From the IMG/VR virus record IMGVR_UViG_2698536485_000022: 15,456 nucleotides of DNA. The stretch is one strand, 5' to 3'. Numbering within the stretch: the first letter of the stretch is position 1; the number at the start of each line of letters is the position of its first letter. The position numbers and the translations under genes are program-made. The notes beneath the pieces are model-generated. The model was not told where the DNA came from. It worked only from the letters and a program-made list of their open reading frames with translations, and did not search any database. The stretch comes from a virus (taxonomy: Duplodnaviria; Heunggongvirae; Uroviricota; Caudoviricetes). Below are positions 772 to 14,144 of this stretch, one piece after another.

Positions 772-1806
772 ATGCCACTAAAAGCGTCACTTAACGGAAA
801 AGAAATTCATTCTTTTGAATTTAACTCTCAGGAATGGGAATATCTTAAACAGACATATAAAAGCCAGTCTTTGTTTATGTCGTGCTGTGGTCAGCCTGGT
901 ATACCTAAAACAAGCAAACTTAATAACTATTACTTTGCACATAAATCCAAAAGCGATTGCCTGTATGCGAAAGAAAGCGCAGAACATTTATATCTCAAAT
1001 TCTTAATCGCAAAATTAGCCAGTGATGCTGGCTGGTCAGTTACTACCGAAAAACAAGGGGTGACCCCAACAGGAGAACAATGGATTGCCGATGTGTTTTG
1101 TACCAGAAATAACGCGAAACTGGTTTTCGAAGTACAGTTATCACCGCAAAAAGACGATGAATTTAAAGAACGTCAAAAACGATATATCGCATCAGGAGTC
1201 CGTGCACTGTGGTTGCGAAAGTTACGTAAAGGAAGTAAAGAGCATGGTGGGAATATATACCATAGCTACGATTTACCTGTTTTTGGTGTGCGTCAGAATG
1301 AAAATGGGGACTTGTATCTACCACAGTTTGGGATTAGTGTCAGGGAGTTTATCGCGGGTGTTTTTGCCAGAAAGCTATTATGGTTCCCAAAGGTTGGGGA
1401 TGTGCTGACTGCAAAAATAGAATCGCGAGTTACAAAATGCTGGAGATGTAAGAAACGAACTGGAATTATCAGGGGTATTTCTGTTTACAGTAAGTCCGTA
1501 TTCGTCAAGTTTTTATCTTTTCGTGATTCTGATGTCAAAGAACTAATAGCCATTCACGTGGATAACAAAAAACTCTGGGCGGCTGGAATTGGTACTGTTA
1601 AGGACAGAGACAGTGATTGTTATTTATCTAACTGTTGCATACATTGTTATTCGCTTATAGGAGATTTCTTTTTATTAGAGGTTTTCGACTACCCGAATGA
1701 TAAACAAAAGATAATGATAGAATTTACTTTTACTTATGCTAGCAATATGAAAATCTTATCCAGCGAGTGGGTATTTGATGGTAAAAAAGCTGAAATGTTT
1801 TTCTGA
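772..1806 (+). CDS. CoiA-like PD-(D/E)xK nuclease-family protein with Cys-rich C-terminal half
   Basis: 344-aa ORF from ATG 772. Motif series YFAHK ... ESAEHLYLK ... IADVFC ... LVFEVQLS ... RYIASGVRALWL matches what I recall for CoiA-family nucleases (D ... E-x-Q catalytic pattern). C-terminal half has CWRCKK and CCIHC clusters. Visibly AT-rich compared with the phage backbone. Confidence 0.55.
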   Translation: MPLKASLNGKEIHSFEFNSQEWEYLKQTYKSQSLFMSCCGQPGIPKTSKLNNYYFAHKSKSDCLYAKESAEHLYLKFLIAKLASDAGWSVTTEKQGVTPTGEQWIADVFCTRNNAKLVFEVQLSPQKDDEFKERQKRYIASGVRALWLRKLRKGSKEHGGNIYHSYDLPVFGVRQNENGDLYLPQFGISVREFIAGVFARKLLWFPKVGDVLTAKIESRVTKCWRCKKRTGIIRGISVYSKSVFVKFLSFRDSDVKELIAIHVDNKKLWAAGIGTVKDRDSDCYLSNCCIHCYSLIGDFFLLEVFDYPNDKQKIMIEFTFTYASNMKILSSEWVFDGKKAEMFF

Positions 1807-2319: not shown

Positions 2320-3186
2320 TTAATTAATAGCGTCTTTGCTCTGAAGTACAGCAAATGCCATTAATACCTCTAAAGTATATCGTCTATAAAACTTAACGAA
2401 TCCAACATAAAAAACATAGACGAAGAAAAAGCTAAGTAGCGTCGAAATAGAAATATAAGACACCGCCCCGCCTTCTATAGCACGATAAATTAATGTTAGA
2501 AATGATATCCAAAATGTAATTACAAATACTAAACAAATATTTCTGCAAAAACCATATAATGCAACATAGTTTTGAATTTTTGTTTGATGTTGATTAGAAA
2601 ATTCATAGACGTAATGATAAGCCAATCTGAAAAGATCATCATGAAGACCTGTCCTGATGTTTAATAATTTATCGTCTATTCTGAATTTTTTTTCATAACC
2701 TTCTTTGATCATTAGCCATGTGGTATTAGCTAATTGAAATGGCAATGATTGTGAATAACATAGTTTTTGAGTGGCGTAATCCCATGGTATTATCGGGAAT
2801 AACATCACTTTGATTATGCAGTATTTTATTTTTCTCTTTGTGTCTTCGTTCTGTTTGTCACTTGATGGTGTTAAGACGTTTTTTTTGTCATCTGATAACT
2901 TATTAAATAGATATTCTGACGGATATTGCAATTCTTCGTTCATATATTTTTCAATAAAAAATGCGGATGTGATAGATATAAAGTGTCCAGCTATGTAAGA
3001 TATGATTACTATTGAACCATAGTTCAAAATGCCAAAGATTTGACTTTGACCTCTGAGCAATTCAGTTAAGTCAATAACAATATCTAGATCGAATGTCAAA
3101 CCACAGAAATACATTAACAGGATAAAAAATCCACCTGGTATTAAATATCCAAGAAAGTCATAGAATGAGAATGGATTTTGATTCAT
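2320..3186 (-). CDS. multi-pass inner-membrane protein, AT-rich cargo gene, function unknown
   Basis: Track ORF 2320-3210 (TTG) trimmed to ATG 3186, preceded by GGAGAG. 288 aa with at least four helix-length hydrophobic segments (FLGYLIPGGFFILLMYFCGLTF, IFGILNYGSIVIISYIAGHFISITSAFF, ICLVFVITFWISFLTLIY, ISISTLLSFFFVYVFYVGFV). Strongly AT-rich. Confidence 0.7.
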   Translation of the reverse strand: MNQNPFSFYDFLGYLIPGGFFILLMYFCGLTFDLDIVIDLTELLRGQSQIFGILNYGSIVIISYIAGHFISITSAFFIEKYMNEELQYPSEYLFNKLSDDKKNVLTPSSDKQNEDTKRKIKYCIIKVMLFPIIPWDYATQKLCYSQSLPFQLANTTWLMIKEGYEKKFRIDDKLLNIRTGLHDDLFRLAYHYVYEFSNQHQTKIQNYVALYGFCRNICLVFVITFWISFLTLIYRAIEGGAVSYISISTLLSFFFVYVFYVGFVKFYRRYTLEVLMAFAVLQSKDAIN

Positions 3187-3294
3187 CGTTGCTCTCCATA
3201 AATTTTTCAATTTGTAATATAACCTATATCTATATGTTAATAAATTACTTATATGTTCTTTTATGGTAGAGTTTGAATTTGTACGTGCTAATTT

Positions 3295-5865: not shown

Positions 5866-6540
5866 TTAGGCCTTTATTATGTATCTTCTTGGTTTTCCTG
5901 AGAAAATCACTGTACCAATTATAGAGCAATTACCGTTGATCTTAATGTAAGGTTCAGGCCAGTTTGGGTTTAATGCTTTGAGGTAACGCTGTGTTCCATC
6001 TTCTATCAACCGCTTGAAGGTGGTTTCGCCTGTATCGTGCATCAATGCAATAACGTCGTCACCGTGGCAGGCAGGGACTTCAGGATCAACAAAAATCATG
6101 TCTCCCGGGCGGTACTCATCAATCATTGAATCACCAATCACCCGCAAGATATAAGTCATTTCGCCACAGGGTACAGGGCAGGGGTAAGTTTCTGCTGTGC
6201 TCAAATCAACCTCAGAATAGCCAACTTCTTTCCATGCTCCGGCCTGTACCCATGATATGACAGGGACTAACGTTATTTGTTTGTTAGTGATTGAAACATC
6301 AGGTTTTTTTGTGATGTTCGTGGTCTGGTGTTCTTGATCAAGCCATCCGACAGGCAGGTCGAAACATTTTTCGATGTGCCGCGCCATGCTGTCACCGATA
6401 TTTTTAGTAGCACCATCTCCCATAAACCTGCTGGTCTGGGTTGGCTCGCGATCAATCATGGTGGCAAAGGAAGAATTCCCGCCAACACCATCTCTCAGTT
6501 TTCTGGCGTTAGACCGCCGGATGTCATGGACTGTTTTCAT
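5866..6540 (-). CDS. cI: CI-type prophage repressor (N-terminal HTH, C-terminal S24 LexA-like autopeptidase)
   Basis: 224 aa from ATG 6540. C-terminal domain has the Ala-Gly cleavage site (VQAGAW), catalytic Ser in VIGDSM and Lys in TFKRL. Divergent from the cro-like gene. Confidence 0.85.
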   Translation of the reverse strand: MKTVHDIRRSNARKLRDGVGGNSSFATMIDREPTQTSRFMGDGATKNIGDSMARHIEKCFDLPVGWLDQEHQTTNITKKPDVSITNKQITLVPVISWVQAGAWKEVGYSEVDLSTAETYPCPVPCGEMTYILRVIGDSMIDEYRPGDMIFVDPEVPACHGDDVIALMHDTGETTFKRLIEDGTQRYLKALNPNWPEPYIKINGNCSIIGTVIFSGKPRRYIIKA

Positions 6541-8858: not shown

Positions 8859-9511
8859 TGAGTAATAAATATTGCCAGGCGCTGGTGGAACTGCGGAATA
8901 AACCAGCCCATGAACTGAAGGAAGTGGGAGATCAGTGGCGCACGCCGGATAACATTTTCTGGGGAATTAACACCCTGTTTGGTCCGTTTGTTCTGGATCT
9001 GTTCACTGACGGTGATAACGCCAAATGTGCCGCGTATTACACGGCGGAAGACAACGCGCTGGCGCATGACTGGTCAGAACGCCTTGCGGAGCTTAAAGGT
9101 GCTGCCTTTGGTAATCCTCCATACAGCCGCGCCAGTCAGCATGAGGGGCAATACATCACCGGCATGCGTTACATCATGAAACATGCCAGTGCCATGCGTG
9201 ATAAGGGCGGGCGCTATGTTTTCCTGATCAAAGCTGCCACCAGCGAAGTGTGGTGGCCGGAAGATGCAGATCATATTGCTTTTATTCGCGGGCGTATTGG
9301 TTTTGAACTGCCTGTCTGGTTTATCCCGAAAGACGAGAAGCAGGTACCGACAGGAGCTTTTTTCGCTGGTGCTATTGCTGTTTTTGACAAGACCTGGAAG
9401 GGACCGGCAATCAGCTACATTGGGCGCGATGAACTTGAGGCATGTGGTGAGGCGTTTCTGGCGCAGGTTCGCCAGCAGGCGGAAAAACTGGTCAGGGAGA
9501 TGGCGGCATGA
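8858..9511 (+). CDS. phage Dam-family DNA N6-adenine methyltransferase
   Basis: 217 aa with the catalytic NPPY motif (AAFGNPPYSRA). Translationally coupled on both sides. Confidence 0.8.
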   Translation: MSNKYCQALVELRNKPAHELKEVGDQWRTPDNIFWGINTLFGPFVLDLFTDGDNAKCAAYYTAEDNALAHDWSERLAELKGAAFGNPPYSRASQHEGQYITGMRYIMKHASAMRDKGGRYVFLIKAATSEVWWPEDADHIAFIRGRIGFELPVWFIPKDEKQVPTGAFFAGAIAVFDKTWKGPAISYIGRDELEACGEAFLAQVRQQAEKLVREMAA

Positions 9512-9834
9512 CGACATTAACTCAATGCCAGCAGCAGGTGCTGGATATGCTGATTTCTTATCAGAAAGAGCGTGGCTTTCCGCCAACCAATCAGGAGGTG
9601 GCAACCATGCTGGGATACCGTTCAGTGAATGCAGCGGTAGAGCATCTTCGCGCACTGGAGAAAAAAGGCGTCATCACGATAAAGCGTGGCGTGGCCCGGG
9701 GGATAACGCTTCATACCGCGGTGAAGGACGACGACAGCGAGGCGGTCGGGATTATCCACTCACTGCTTGCCGGTGAGGAAAACGCAAGGCTGCGTGCAAC
9801 CCACTGGTTACATGAGAGGGACCTGAAAGTATGA
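9508..9834 (+). CDS. LexA N-terminal DNA-binding-domain paralog lacking the S24 peptidase domain
   Basis: 108 aa. MTTLTQCQQQVLDMLISYQKERGFPPTNQEVATMLGYRSVNAAVEHLRALEKKGVITIKRGVARGITL aligns by eye with the E. coli LexA N-terminus (..LT.RQQEV.D.I.......G.PPT..E.A..LG.RS.NAA.EHL.AL..KGVI.I..G..RGI.L). No cleavage site or Ser/Lys dyad follows. Confidence 0.75.
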   Translation: MTTLTQCQQQVLDMLISYQKERGFPPTNQEVATMLGYRSVNAAVEHLRALEKKGVITIKRGVARGITLHTAVKDDDSEAVGIIHSLLAGEENARLRATHWLHERDLKV

Positions 9835-10226
9835 AGCTGATCCTGCCTTTTCCGCCCAGCGTGAACACGTACTGGCGACACCCCAACAAAGGGGCGTTTG
9901 CTGGTAAGAGCCTGATAAGCGCGGCGGGGCGCAAATTCCAGAGCGCGGCGTGTGCAGCAATAGTTGAGCAGTTACGTCGTCTGCCAAAACCAACGTCGGC
10001 ACCTGCATCAGTGGAGATCGTGTTGTTTCCTCCGGATAACCGGATCCGCGATCTGGACAACTATAACAAGGCGCTGTTTGACGCCCTGACCCACGCGGGT
10101 GTGTGGGAAGACGACAGTCAGGTGAAAAGAATGCTGGTGGAGTGGGGACCGGTTATCCCGGAAGGGAAGGTCGAGATCACTATCAGTAAGTACGAAAAAG
10201 CGAGTTGCAAATTAGCAACTCGGTAA
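9831..10226 (+). CDS. rusA: RusA Holliday-junction resolvase
   Basis: 131 aa. Motifs LPFPPSVNTYWR and DLDNYNKALFDALTHAGVWEDDSQV match RusA. Confidence 0.85.
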   Translation: MKLILPFPPSVNTYWRHPNKGAFAGKSLISAAGRKFQSAACAAIVEQLRRLPKPTSAPASVEIVLFPPDNRIRDLDNYNKALFDALTHAGVWEDDSQVKRMLVEWGPVIPEGKVEITISKYEKASCKLATR

Positions 10227-10271
10227 CGGAATTGAGCAACACCCTAAATTTGGGTATTACCTCGTTAAAGA

Positions 10272-10291
10272 TACTGTATTTATGAACAGTG
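10272..10291. promoter_or_regulatory. SOS (LexA) box TACTGTATTTATGAACAGTG
   Basis: CTGT-N8-ACAG core at 10274-10289 with matching flanks (consensus TACTGTATATATATACAGTA). About 90 bp upstream of the KilA-N gene start, adjacent to a TTGATA hexamer at 10297-10302. Confidence 0.65.
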
Positions 10292-10377
10292 TATCCTTGA
10301 TAACTATTAAAAATCGCAGTAAGTTCATCTTGCATCAACGAAAAGGGAGTGCAGTCCCGAAATTTGTGGAGAAACCA

Positions 10378-11193
10378 ATGAATCAGTTGCTTGTAATTGA
10401 TGGCGTTTCTGTGCGCCAGTACTTTGAATCTAACTACTGTCTTAACGACCTTCAGAAAGCTGCTCTTCTTGCCGCTGGTGAGAATCGCTCCTCCCGTTCG
10501 CTGGAAGTTCACGAGTTTATGCGTCGTCCTGAAACGAAGGCTCTTGTGGAATTACTGGAAGAAGAAACTACGGGAGATTCCCGTAGTATTCCTGTCATCA
10601 CCATTCAGGGGCGCAATGGTGGGACGTATGTCTGTAAAGAGCTGGTCTATGCATATGCAATGTGGATCAGCCCGGCATTCAGCTTAAAAGTGATACGTAC
10701 TTTTGATGCGCTTCATAATTCATCACCAGAAGAAACCATATCCGACAAAATTAAATCCGGGGTCATTCTGCTTGAATCAGCAGCAAAGACTCTAAATCTG
10801 TCAAACTCCTCGAAACTTGGTGCATACCAGAAATTATCAAAGGTAGCAGGTCTTCCTGAACTTATGCCGATCTATGCCATTGATGCACCTGCTGATGCGC
10901 CAGATGGTTCAAGCCGCCCGACACTGTCACTGAGTGCACTGCTGAAACAGTATGGTATACGCCTGACGGCTAATCAGGCATATCACCAGATGGTGAAACT
11001 GGGGATCGTCGAGCAGCGCGAACGATACAGCCGTACCGCGATTAACAACATCAAAAAATTCTGGTCGCTGACAGCGAAAGGTTGCATGTTCGGCAAGAAC
11101 ATCACCAGTCCTGCAAATCCGCGCGAGACGCAGCCGCATTTCTTCGAATCCCGATTCCCTGAGCTGTTAAAGCTGCTCGATACCGTTCACTGA
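10378..11193 (+). CDS. KilA-N domain protein, antirepressor-like
   Basis: Track ORF 10282-11193 trimmed to ATG 10378 (GGAG 8 nt upstream); 271 aa. N-terminal KilA-N pattern: LLVIDGVSVRQYFESNYCLNDLQKAAL ... GTYVCKELVYAYAMWISPAF. Confidence 0.7.
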   Translation: MNQLLVIDGVSVRQYFESNYCLNDLQKAALLAAGENRSSRSLEVHEFMRRPETKALVELLEEETTGDSRSIPVITIQGRNGGTYVCKELVYAYAMWISPAFSLKVIRTFDALHNSSPEETISDKIKSGVILLESAAKTLNLSNSSKLGAYQKLSKVAGLPELMPIYAIDAPADAPDGSSRPTLSLSALLKQYGIRLTANQAYHQMVKLGIVEQRERYSRTAINNIKKFWSLTAKGCMFGKNITSPANPRETQPHFFESRFPELLKLLDTVH

Positions 11194-11208: not shown

Positions 11209-11724
11209 ATGAGAATTACACCACCCCATCTGCAGCCAGTTTTATCCAGGGTTAAACGTTTTGTTGAACGAATGCCGGAAGGCGCAACACTGACCCAGAT
11301 ATCACAGAAAGTGCAGGCGTACAGTCTACTGAATAAAAGGGATAAGGAGATACTCATTGGCATTATCCGCGACAGTGGACTTCTGGTCGTTGCGAATGAT
11401 GGAAGAACTACAACGTTACATCATCCTAAATTTGGACATCAGGCAGTAAATAGTGAAATACCAGTAAAAACAGAGGAACCCGTTGTGATTAAAAAGACCG
11501 TTACTCCGGATGAATTACGCAGGCATGCTGAGGAGCTGATCAGGGCTGCGGAAGAAGCAGAGAAGAAATTTAATGATCGTGCGGAAATTAAAAAGCAACT
11601 GGATCCTCTGAAACTGGAAATCCTCCAGGCGTATGGAATGGCAAGTCGTAAATTTGATGAGTTTGTTGATGCTATGGCGGATATGGGGAAAGCGGTACAG
11701 AAACTGAAACAGATTGTGCTGTGA
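11209..11724 (+). CDS. hypothetical phage protein (171 aa)
   Basis: ATG 11209 with GGGAGG Shine-Dalgarno. Charged coiled-coil-like C-terminus. No family recognised. Confidence 0.55.
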   Translation: MRITPPHLQPVLSRVKRFVERMPEGATLTQISQKVQAYSLLNKRDKEILIGIIRDSGLLVVANDGRTTTLHHPKFGHQAVNSEIPVKTEEPVVIKKTVTPDELRRHAEELIRAAEEAEKKFNDRAEIKKQLDPLKLEILQAYGMASRKFDEFVDAMADMGKAVQKLKQIVL

Positions 11725-11733
11725 GGTTCTACG

Positions 11734-12723
11734 TTGAGAGCACTGCTGACCCCTGAAATTGCCCCGCGTATGGGGATCGTCTTGTTCAGACCAGGTTCAG
11801 AGCTGATGCCCCTGTTTATGCAGGGGCGTGTCCTGCTGGAGCCTGAGCCGGAACGTTATTCATCTTTTGCCAGTGGTGCCGTTCCGGCAGCATCACAACC
11901 GCTGGCGGATGATCCTGCCGTTCGGGCCGTGTTCCGCCATGAGGCGGTGATCCGTCGTGCTGGTGGCGTGGAATGTCTTGAAAGCTGGTTACTTCGTGAA
12001 AAAGGCTGCCAGTGGCCTCATTCCGACTGGCACAGCGAGAACATGACCACAATGCGACACGCTCCGGGCGCAATCCGTCTGTGCTGGCACTGCGATAACC
12101 AGCTGCGCGATCAGTTCACGGAACGGCTGGAAGCAATGGCAACGGATAACTGTGCCCGCTGGGTGTTGTCTGTTGTGCGTCGGGATCTCGGTTTTGATGA
12201 TAGTCACGTTGTGACAATGCCGGAACTGTGCTGGTGGCTGATTCGTAATGACCTGGCGTATGCCTTACCGGAAAGTGCAGCCCGTAAGGCACTGAGATTA
12301 CCGAAGCCTGTTGTGCCGTCTGTCACCCGGGAAAGTGACCTTGTGCCTTCGGTTACTGCCACCAGCATCATCCAGGATAAGGCGAAAAAGGTGCTGGCGC
12401 TGAAAGTGGATCCGGAGTCGCCGGAGTCTTTTATGTTACGCCCCAAACGTCGTCGCTGGGTTAATGAAAAGTACACGCGCTGGGTTAAGACACAGCCTTG
12501 CGCGTGTTGTGGTAAGCCAGCCGACGATCCACATCACCTGATTGGCCATGGTCAGGGTGGAATGGGTACAAAAGCGCATGACCTTTTTGTGTTGCCTTTG
12601 TGCAGAAAACACCATGACGAACTGCATGCGGATACCGTGGCATTTGAAGAGAAGTATGGTTCCCAACTGGAGCTGATATTTCGTTTTATCGATCGCGCGC
12701 TGGCGATTGGTGTGCTGTCCTGA
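11734..12723 (+). CDS. DUF968 (YdfU-like) protein with C-terminal HNH-like Cys/His motif
   Basis: TTG 11734 preceded by GTGAGG; 329 aa. C-terminus CACCGKPADDPHHLIGHGQGGMGTKAHDLFVLPLCRKHHDELH. Lies directly upstream of Q, as ydfU does relative to quuQ in my recollection. Confidence 0.65.
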   Translation: MRALLTPEIAPRMGIVLFRPGSELMPLFMQGRVLLEPEPERYSSFASGAVPAASQPLADDPAVRAVFRHEAVIRRAGGVECLESWLLREKGCQWPHSDWHSENMTTMRHAPGAIRLCWHCDNQLRDQFTERLEAMATDNCARWVLSVVRRDLGFDDSHVVTMPELCWWLIRNDLAYALPESAARKALRLPKPVVPSVTRESDLVPSVTATSIIQDKAKKVLALKVDPESPESFMLRPKRRRWVNEKYTRWVKTQPCACCGKPADDPHHLIGHGQGGMGTKAHDLFVLPLCRKHHDELHADTVAFEEKYGSQLELIFRFIDRALAIGVLS

Positions 12724-12740
12724 TTTTGTGGAGAAAGTTG

Positions 12741-13121
12741 ATGCGTGATATTCAGATGGTTCTTGAACGCTGGGGGGCATGGGCGGCAAGTGGTAACACC
12801 GGGGTGGACTATTCTCCGATCGCTGCCGGATTCAAAGGACTTTTACCATCTGCCACTAAACCACGTCCGGCCTGCTGCGATGATGACGGACTTATCATTG
12901 AAAACTGTCTTGCTCGTCTGAAGCAGAAAAAACCTGAGGAGTATTCGCTTCTCATTGCTCATTATTTGTTGCGAATATCAAAAAGACAGATAGCCAGGAC
13001 GAGAAAGAAAAGCGAAAAAGCAATACGAATTGAGATGCAGATAGCCGAAGGGTTTATTGACGGATGTTTGTCTGTGCTGGGGGTAAGACTGGAGATGGAC
13101 GACTGGCTGCTAAAAAAGTAA
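12741..13121 (+). CDS. late-gene antiterminator Q (QuuD/QuuQ type)
   Basis: 126 aa from ATG 12741 with GGAG Shine-Dalgarno (MRDIQMVLERWGAWAA ... AAGFKGLLP ... CCDDDGLIIENCLARLKQ). Followed by a terminator. Confidence 0.75.
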   Translation: MRDIQMVLERWGAWAASGNTGVDYSPIAAGFKGLLPSATKPRPACCDDDGLIIENCLARLKQKKPEEYSLLIAHYLLRISKRQIARTRKKSEKAIRIEMQIAEGFIDGCLSVLGVRLEMDDWLLKK

Positions 13122-13190
13122 AAAATGATTAGTGCGGTCCGCAAAAAGTATGTCAGTATGTTAAGAGTGGTTACTTCGCCACACAGCTTA

Positions 13191-13214
13191 AACCCGCCGC
13201 GAGCGGGTTTTTTT
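13191..13214 (+). terminator. tR'-like intrinsic terminator downstream of Q
   Basis: AACCCGC-cgcga-GCGGGTT followed by seven T. Confidence 0.7.
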
Positions 13215-13336: not shown

Positions 13337-13871
13337 ATGCTGAAACAGCAGGATATGACAGAAACCGCCAGAGTGGTGTTTAATGAATTAAGCGTCACCG
13401 AACCGGCGACAGTCGGGGAGATTGCGCAGAATACTTACCTTTCACGCGAACGCTGTCAGTTAATACTGACCCAACTATCAGCGGGGTGAACTGGAAAAGC
13501 CACATCACCAACTGGTCAGCACATACAGTGAGCTGAACCGGCAGTATACGGAACTGCTGAGTGAATATAAAAATTTGCGGCGGTATTTCGGTGTGACGGT
13601 GCAGGTGCCGTACACCGATGTGTGGACGTATAAACCGGTGCAGTACTATCCAGGGAAACATCCGTGCGAAAAACCGGCAGAAATGTTGCAGCAGATAATC
13701 AGCGCAAGCAGTCGTCCGGGAGACCTGGTTGCAGATTTCTTCATGGGGTCGGGGTCGACAGTGAAAGCAGCGATGGCGCTGGGACGTCGTGCAACTGGCG
13801 TTGAACTGGAGACTGAACGTTTTGAGCAGACGGTGCGGGAAGTACAGGATTTAATCATTCGTAACGGATGA
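13337..13871 (+). pseudogene. remnant of a DNA methyltransferase gene (N-terminal 50-aa ORF plus out-of-frame C-terminal fragment)
   Basis: ORF 13337-13489 (frame 2) overlaps a frame-0 reading frame open from 13470 to 13871. The latter encodes YYPGKHPCEKPAEMLQQII ... DLVADFFMGSGSTVKAAMALGRRATGVE, typical of the C-terminal part of N4/N6 methyltransferases. No DPPY-type catalytic motif is present. Confidence 0.5.
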
Positions 13872-13911: not shown

Positions 13912-13987
13912 GGCCCTTTAGCTCAGTGGTGAGAGCGAGCGACTCATAATCGCCAGGTCGCTGGTTCAAATCCAGCAAGGGCCACCA
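13912..13987 (+). tRNA. tRNA-Ile (anticodon CAU, ileX/ileZ-like); tRNA-Met not formally excluded
   Basis: 76 nt: GGCCCTT acceptor stem, TAGCTCAGTGG D-arm, anticodon loop CTCATAA (CAT at 13945-13947), T-loop TTCAAAT, 3' ACCA. Close to the E. coli ileX sequence as I recall it. Confidence 0.85.
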
Positions 13988-14067: not shown

Positions 14068-14144
14068 GCGTTGTTAGCTCAGCCGGACAGAGCAATTGCC
14101 TTCTAAGCAATCGGTCACTGGTTCGAATCCAGTACAACGCACCA
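14068..14144 (+). tRNA. tRNA-Arg (anticodon UCU)
   Basis: 77 nt: acceptor GCGTTGT/ACAACGC, anticodon stem ATTGC/GCAAT with loop CTTCTAA (TCT at 14102-14104), T-arm ACTGG-TTCGAAT-CCAGT, 3' ACCA. Confidence 0.85.

Follow-up and report, generated by a model that had tools for sequence, protein, structure and literature searches.

In the 15,456-nt stretch of viral DNA recorded as IMGVR_UViG_2698536485_000022 (Caudoviricetes; the whole stretch is referred to here as the window), a 20-bp SOS box lies beside a predicted σ70 promoter in the spacer between a rusA gene and a gene for a KilA-N domain protein, and this box is probably a working operator for the host repressor LexA. Both bovine and human Escherichia coli carry this lambdoid prophage, whose early-right arm is the window; strain 13E0780 and others contain the same DNA with 100% identity. 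The best explanation as a whole, held with somewhat better than even confidence, is that host LexA occupies this operator, that the adjoining promoter is internal to the early operon and that transcription of the KilA-N gene would depend on the SOS response; LexA control of the KilA-N promoter, considered by itself, likewise appears rather probable. The elements in and around this spacer are as follows.

9831–10226, + strand: RusA resolvase gene, upstream neighbour of the box
10272–10291: candidate LexA (SOS) box
10297–10302, + strand: predicted −35 element TTGATA, 5 nt 3′ of the box
10320–10325, + strand: predicted −10 element TAAGTT, 17 nt from the −35 element
10366–10373, + strand: ribosome-binding region GTGGAGAA, a conserved Shine-Dalgarno sequence ahead of the ATG at 10378
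10378–11193, + strand: KilA-N gene, 271 residues, with an N-terminal KilA-N domain and an unnamed conserved C-terminal module (GKNITSPANPRETQPHFF)

The box, TACTGTATTTATGAACAGTG, carries perfect CTGT and ACAG half-sites and matches the LexA consensus TACTG(TA)5CAGTA, a 20-bp palindrome with CTG/CAG cores 10 bp apart, at 16 of 20 bases; among relatives, either G or A occupies position 20. It is the single occurrence of CTGT-N8-ACAG in the window, a pattern that appears on average 0.23 times in shuffled windows (at least one copy in 41 of 200 shuffles). Sites were also scored by a heterology index (HI) of the Berg-von Hippel type, using a matrix derived from 26 E. coli SOS boxes in the literature. 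The box has an HI of about 5.1 on the reverse strand and about 7.6 on the forward strand, comparable to the boxes of lexA, uvrA, uvrB and ssb (the 26 training boxes span 1.1 to 9.6), whilst the second-best site in the window has an HI of 11.9 and none of the 200 shuffles contained a site as good. As a positive control, the matrix recovers both SOS boxes ahead of the dinI gene of phage mEp460. A first-pass annotation of this DNA had described a near-consensus SOS box about 90 bp upstream of a KilA-N gene, which agrees with these results, the end of the box lying 86 nt from the ATG. In the library searched, no paper was found to contain the exact box sequence or to discuss its KilA-N gene; tools that sort prophages by LexA-box heterology index are already published (PMC12527982).

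The predicted promoter places the transcription start near 10332 and the centre of the box near −50. In spacers aligned from eight other genera, the −35 element, the 17-nt spacing and the −10 element are conserved in seven, with flanks that have diverged by about 40%; Buttiauxella is the exception, and Citrobacter and Kosakonia match loosely. The −35 element reads TTGAAA, TTGAAG or TTGAAT in the spacers of Enterobacter, Superficieibacter, Atlantibacter, Leclercia, Raoultella and Kluyvera, and the −10 column of other genera holds TAAGGT, TAATGT or TAATCT. A LexA-type palindrome stands at an equal distance from the promoter in six of the seven promoter-conserving genera, Kluyvera having retained the promoter with a degenerate box. 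A different, recA-like promoter with the box in its spacer (AAGATA-18-TATCCT) was considered and rejected, being weaker and not conserved by the other genera. Box and promoter are located 3.7 kb to the right of the cI gene, in the nin-equivalent region and outside the immunity region.

The box is linked to a particular allele of the gene. It sits in a 151-bp spacer in the window and in a commoner 162-bp version elsewhere, and this spacer is present in 186 of 5,426 complete E. coli genomes as well as in phages SfIV and PhiR49_1. Of the IMG/VR contigs, all 47 whose KilA-N allele is at least 98% identical to that of the window carry the box, unchanged in 46 and with one half-site altered from ACAG to AGAG in the remaining contig. 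Where an insertion has displaced rusA by 1.6 kb, the box is still 86 nt from the KilA-N gene. The SfV-type allele, approximately 70% identical and found in SfV, mEp460 and Stx2a_1447, instead follows rusA after a 19-bp gap and has no box; the box is missing from every one of the roughly 30 alleles of this type.

Operators of the SOS type recur upstream of orthologous genes. In a survey of one genome per species that included other Enterobacterales, 9 of 47 upstream regions of KilA-N orthologs contained a site with HI below 10, compared with 0.8% of 963 background segments from the same loci; the binomial P value of this enrichment is 2e-10 if the loci are treated as independent, which is only partly true. 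The geometry differs between groups: in Pantoea and Rosenbergiella the −35 element lies within the box (GTTACA-17-TATATT or TATAGT), in Erwinia it is the −10 element that does so (TTGCCA-17-TATATT, 10 of 12 consensus matches), and in the E. coli type the box abuts the −35 element. The Pantoea and Rosenbergiella, Erwinia and E. coli-type spacers cannot be aligned with one another, and the comparison suggests that SOS control was gained more than once in this gene family.

At four of the loci (L009, L021, L027 and L029), which represent several genera, the promoter-proximal half-site reads GATCAG, placing a Dam site (GATC) across the LexA half-site, and phage modules with such boxes often encode a Dam methylase themselves; the box of the window contains no GATC.

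Several observations weigh against LexA control. The promoter matches the consensus at 8 of 12 positions, and a strict promoter scan made no call. At most SOS genes the LexA box covers the −35 element, the −10 element or the start site; the E. coli-type box sits 5′ of the −35 element, outside the usual repression window, and the efficiency of repression is uncertain because of this position. Several genera have GTGG or ATGG in place of CTGT as the promoter-distal half-site, with HI values of 10–13, so that a LexA site there would be weak. The E. coli copies of the box are nearly identical and their conservation therefore carries little weight, and the HI values are approximate.

The position of the box, the small share of complete E. 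coli genomes that possess it, the contig with the altered half-site and the SfV-type phages, in which the gene works without it, could all be accommodated if the box were a chance match, or an inert remnant carried along where rusA and KilA-N alleles were joined by recombination, with no regulatory role. This is considered very improbable: the shuffled windows yielded no site of equal quality, the spacing between box and conserved promoter is fixed, and palindromes of the SOS type are seen again in other genera whose spacers are non-homologous.

How a LexA-controlled promoter would act within the prophage depends on the repressor to its left and the genes to its right.

5866–6540, − strand: cI-type repressor, similar to YmfK of e14, with a Peptidase_S24 match (E = 1.5e-26)
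11209–11724, + strand: open reading frame (ORF) of 171 residues, phrog_2539, a PHROG of unknown function, with a very weak Csm2-like match
11734–12723, + strand: DUF968/HNH (YdfU-like) gene, packed closely downstream
12726–13121, + strand: Q antiterminator gene (the RefSeq start corresponds to 12741)
13190–13210, + strand: strong intrinsic terminator after Q, in a tR′-like position, the first one 3′ of the box promoter

In the proposed mechanism, host LexA would bind the 20-bp operator on the small σ70 promoter inside the rightward early operon. In the lysogen, cI would silence pR whilst LexA silences the internal promoter; DNA damage would then lead to cleavage of LexA, and the KilA-N gene would be transcribed regardless of whether cI is still intact. 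The transcript may run on through the 171-residue ORF and the DUF968 gene into Q, since the genes from KilA-N to Q are spaced by no more than 15 nt and no convincing + strand terminator was found between the box promoter and Q, nor any before 13190. The C-terminal domain of the repressor aligns with that of lambda cI and keeps the Ala-Gly cleavage site (VQAGAW), the serine (GDSM) and the lysine (TFKRL), as had been proposed in the first-pass annotation, which read the S24 autocleavage domain as intact. LexA is cleaved faster than cI-type repressors, so that, if LexA controls the promoter, the prophage would have two damage inputs with different thresholds. The same annotation had suggested that two SOS-coupled mechanisms may coexist; SOS-dependent, cI-independent transcription of the KilA-N gene alongside a cleavable cI is likely, whereas an antirepressor route, as discussed below, finds no support.

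Host LexA is not the only candidate for binding the box. The first-pass annotation, although correct about the box itself, omitted an obvious alternative binder encoded two genes upstream of the KilA-N gene.

9508–9834, + strand: LexA-like protein of 108 residues, with a match to the LexA DNA-binding domain (PF01726, E = 3e-19) and no S24 domain

This protein aligns with residues 2–69 of E. coli LexA (E = 7e-16) and keeps S39, N41, A42, E45 and H46 of the recognition helix; against the LexA repressor model TIGR00498 it matches residues 1–91 of 203 positions (71 bits against a cut-off of 111), and the Pfam search gave no match to PF00717 (S24). It has a conserved tail of about 40 residues and belongs to a compact family of about 106–108 residues in Enterobacteriaceae prophages, annotated as 'LexA family transcriptional regulator'; a literature search on phage LexA-like proteins found no functional study. 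An Ala-Gly within its sequence (LLAGE) was considered as a trans-cleavage site and rejected, as it is not conserved among homologs. From its sequence, the protein could be an uncleavable binder of SOS boxes.

The retained recognition helix and the location of the gene in the same operon raise the question of whether the box is bound mainly by this protease-less protein, made from pR, which, once host LexA is gone, would shut the KilA-N promoter and perhaps host SOS genes as well. A weak hint in the same direction came from about eight loci, at which proteins with Glu45 were found near CTGT boxes and those with Asp45 near GTGG boxes, but this co-variation of helix and half-site vanished with more loci. 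Box and LexA-like gene also occur apart: eight loci have a box and no LexA-like gene within 3.5 kb (L021, L024, L027, L044, L012, L014, L023 and L025), LexA-like genes without a box are found at L013, L017, L019 and L020 and in SfV and mEp460, and for 71 of 101 LexA-like loci the 1.6 kb downstream contains no KilA-N gene. Identical boxes moreover adjoin very different recognition helices (NAANDH, NSARDI). Because box and gene occur apart, the helices vary and the co-variation failed, host LexA is the more economical binder, and a main role for the phage protein at the box is regarded as improbable.

Both proteins could be combined in a two-key timing circuit, in which cleavage of LexA by itself would open the KilA-N-to-Q interval, so that mild SOS induction could prime or trigger the late genes before cI is cleaved, and the phage LexA-like protein, once pR fires, would re-occupy the operator and host SOS boxes, limiting KilA-N and Q to a pulse and shutting down the host SOS response during lytic growth. 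Such a circuit is highly conjectural and is given very little credence.

The product of the KilA-N gene was correctly named in the first-pass annotation, as residues 10–114 match PF04383 (E = 1.3e-15; 57.6 bits against the Pfam cut-off of 23.8). A longer ORF of 303 residues from an ATG at 10282, inside the box, was discarded, since it has no Shine-Dalgarno sequence and its frame depends on an 11-bp indel, which leaves the ATG at 10378 as the start; where the spacer measures 162 bp, the ATG within the box instead opens an upstream ORF of 36 codons that ends on the KilA-N start. The C-terminal module (residues about 120–271; GKN-x-T-x-P-x-NPRETQPH[FWY]) belongs to no Pfam family. Its fusion partners are Bro-N, ORF6N, Rha or KilA-N N-terminal domains in Burkholderiales, Halomonas, Desulfamplus and Thiomargarita (L056–L072), and in Paenibacillus and one Pseudomonadaceae genome an N-terminal part without a Pfam match. 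The C-terminal module is a mobile domain, exchanged in the manner typical of phage regulators, and the protein would be a DNA-binding regulator with two domains, from the shuffled KilA-N/Bro-N/Rha/ORF6N class.

Searches with the whole protein gave a similar picture. At a Pfam E value of 0.01 or better KilA-N is the sole match, with ANT/KilAC (PF03374), AntA (PF08346), P22_AR and DinI/Tum-type domains absent, and the NCBIfam search returned nothing. The best PHROG is annotated 'transcriptional regulator', and the other PHROG matches are families of unknown function. An AlphaFold2 model of modest quality (mean predicted local distance difference test score, pLDDT, 69) gave no PDB match in Foldseek at E < 0.3, with weak winged-helix matches and none to an antirepressor, and against BFVD it retrieved KilA-N proteins only. 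PADLOC made no real defence-system assignment; its sole match was to the candidate family PDC-S22 over residues 63–116, in the KilA-N part, and the protein did not match the BstA family.

These results bear on the proposal, made in the first-pass annotation, that the KilA-N protein is a LexA-controlled antirepressor, acting on its own cI or on the repressors of co-resident prophages and providing a second SOS-coupled route to induction. LexA-controlled antirepressors do occupy an equivalent genomic position in the Gifsy prophages (GfoA, GfhA and GftA), with further examples in Tum of phage 186 and AntC of N15, and Fels-1 pairs a cleavable repressor with a trans-acting antirepressor (PMC3121763). 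In addition, the N-terminal partners between which the C-terminal module is exchanged (KilA-N, Bro-N, ORF6N and Rha) belong to a class of domains often annotated as antirepressor, and the E. coli strains concerned are polylysogens. The proposal is nevertheless judged unlikely, and several lines of evidence argue against it beyond the missing antirepressor domains, the PHROG annotation and the structure searches. A prophage of E. coli O104:H4 combines a KilA-N protein 100% identical to that of the window with a repressor that is merely 23% identical, whilst SfV combines a 100% identical cI with the 70%-identical, box-less KilA-N allele; the lack of co-variation between allele and repressor type speaks against a cognate repressor-antirepressor pair. 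In most relatives (SfV, mEp460 and Stx2a_1447) the gene lies behind pR without a promoter of its own, 19 bp after rusA, and would be expressed once cI is already inactive, so that an antirepressor directed at the prophage's own cI would come too late. The known LexA-controlled antirepressors are small and paired with non-cleavable repressors, whereas the protein here has 271 residues and accompanies a cleavable cI. Finally, KilA-N proteins include the defence protein BstA (PMC8585504), and the domain therefore does not imply antirepression; a literature search combining KilA-N with LexA and antirepressor returned nothing specific.

Between the predicted promoter and the KilA-N gene, the leader contains a further conserved element.

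10345–10358, + strand: leader hairpin GGGA-GTGCAG-TCCC; in the copy of the window, an 11-bp deletion has removed the 3′ half of the lower stem

The hairpin is found at L002, L006 and L009–L055 just upstream of the KilA-N starts, 20–35 nt ahead of the ribosome-binding site, and presents an invariant TGCAG in a loop of 6–7 nt; in Proteus and Morganella the loop is GTACGG or TATACGG instead. Its stems are wholly different between lineages, with compensatory changes in five of five pairs and 76.8% of positions paired compared with 50.8% in shuffles. The SfV-type phages keep the hairpin, which there overlaps the 3′ end of rusA. It is not a terminator, and an Rfam search gave no match.

A second palindrome, at 10201–10222 at the 3′ end of rusA, is terminator-like solely on the minus strand, where the stem is followed by CTTTTTCG; a role as a + strand terminator, as in Gifsy, was rejected because that strand lacks a T-run. 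The minus strand also contains a weak leftward promoter at 10261–10297 (GATACA-16-TATCTT) with the SOS box in its spacer. Speculatively, this promoter and the palindrome might together produce a LexA-controlled RNA of about 69 nt, antisense to the 3′ end of rusA (fold −25.7 kcal/mol); conservation of the leftward arrangement was not found outside the E. coli-type spacer.

Placement of a LexA-controlled prophage gene outside the immunity region is a familiar form of prophage wiring, to which the KilA-N gene adds. The closest system is that of Salmonella Gifsy-1, -2 and -3, with a LexA-controlled dinI homolog and the antirepressor genes gfoA, gftA and gfhA (Lemire et al. 2011, PMC3121763). Shared features are a LexA box equipped with its own promoter that lies outside the immunity region, in the interval from the replication genes to Q, a palindrome before the box, and SOS-dependent, repressor-independent expression of a prophage gene, demonstrated in Gifsy and proposed here. 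In contrast, Gifsy has a DinI homolog, a small antirepressor and non-cleavable repressors, whereas the window encodes an unrelated 271-residue KilA-N protein and a cleavable S24 cI, and its palindrome before the box does not terminate + strand transcription. In 186 Tum (p95 promoter) and N15 AntC, a host LexA operator on a phage promoter likewise couples expression to the SOS response; these are, however, demonstrated antirepressors, Tum having a DinI-like half (PMC3121763), and the KilA-N protein contains no DinI family domain. Fels-1 resembles the window in that a cleavable cI-type repressor coexists with a second regulator potentially acting on other prophages, but that regulator, FsoA, is governed by the Fels-1 repressor and not by LexA (PMC3121763), and is of an unrelated sequence class.

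The domain structure has parallels in the shuffled KilA-N/Bro-N/Rha/ORF6N phage regulators (Iyer, Koonin and Aravind 2002, as cited in PMC8585504). P1 KilA and BstA share the arrangement of an N-terminal KilA-N domain with an exchangeable C-terminal module; the module in the window differs in being neither KilA-C/ANT nor a member of any Pfam family, and in having no BstA match. LexA-controlled prophage morons such as prophage dinI similarly have a near-consensus SOS box directly 5′ of an accessory gene (two boxes in mEp460), although the KilA-N gene lies within the early operon 5′ of Q, with regulatory genes following, and not at the prophage end.

SOS boxes are common in this phage group, occurring at the 5′ end of a late-region methylase gene, within the repressor gene and before dinI. 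In the first of these positions, a good box (TACTGTAAAAATAAACAGTG or TACTGTAAAAATATCCAGTT) is found some 8 nt into a DNA methyltransferase gene downstream of Q (L075, 34170, SfV; L077, 41021, mEp460; L074, 19112, O104:H4 prophage); the methyltransferase gene of the window is truncated (13575–13871), and the box is absent there. The second is represented by the near-consensus box TACTGTTTTTACATACAGTA (HI about 2.4), located within the coding sequence for the type-B prophage repressor, some 180 nt from the start of the gene (L077, 31970, mEp460; L074, 9503, O104:H4 prophage).

The order of genes in the arm is a cI-type repressor on the minus strand, a cro-like gene, a CII-like gene (CP76 family), an O-like replication gene, a Dam methylase gene, the gene for the 108-residue LexA-like protein, rusA, the box spacer, the KilA-N gene, the 171-residue ORF, the DUF968/HNH gene, Q and the strong terminator. 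The O104:H4 prophage, SfIV and SfV lack the 171-residue ORF, which in the window is inserted between KilA-N and DUF968; among viral contigs it accompanied solely the 151-bp spacer variant that carries the 11-bp deletion. Beyond Q, tRNA genes at 13912–13987 (Met-CAT by ARAGORN, Ile in RefSeq) and 14068–14144 (Arg-TCT), the truncated methyltransferase gene and nanS-p reproduce the layout of Stx phages with no stx genes, and the prophage is an stx-negative relative of the Stx-converting phages. The O104:H4 copy was likewise not placed in the Stx2a phage, as there are no stx genes between its tRNA genes and nanS-p. In the left arm, 772–1806 (+ strand) encodes a protein of 344 residues that RefSeq names 'competence protein CoiA', and 2320–3210 (− strand) a predicted membrane protein of 296 residues, which RefSeq treats as a frameshifted pseudogene and for which PADLOC gives a weak Csx27-like match (E = 2e-5); both may be morons or defence genes.

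A KilA-N domain and an SOS box do not, in themselves, make an antirepressor. A LexA-controlled promoter, if real, gives the very widespread KilA-N family a testable regulatory handle. If the proposed control holds true, a subset of lambdoid prophages, including SfIV of Shigella flexneri, prophages of O111 Shiga toxin-producing E. coli and the stx-negative O104:H4 prophage, would sense DNA damage by two inputs, the second of which would lie upstream of Q, a gene gating lysis and, among related phages, the expression of Shiga toxin.

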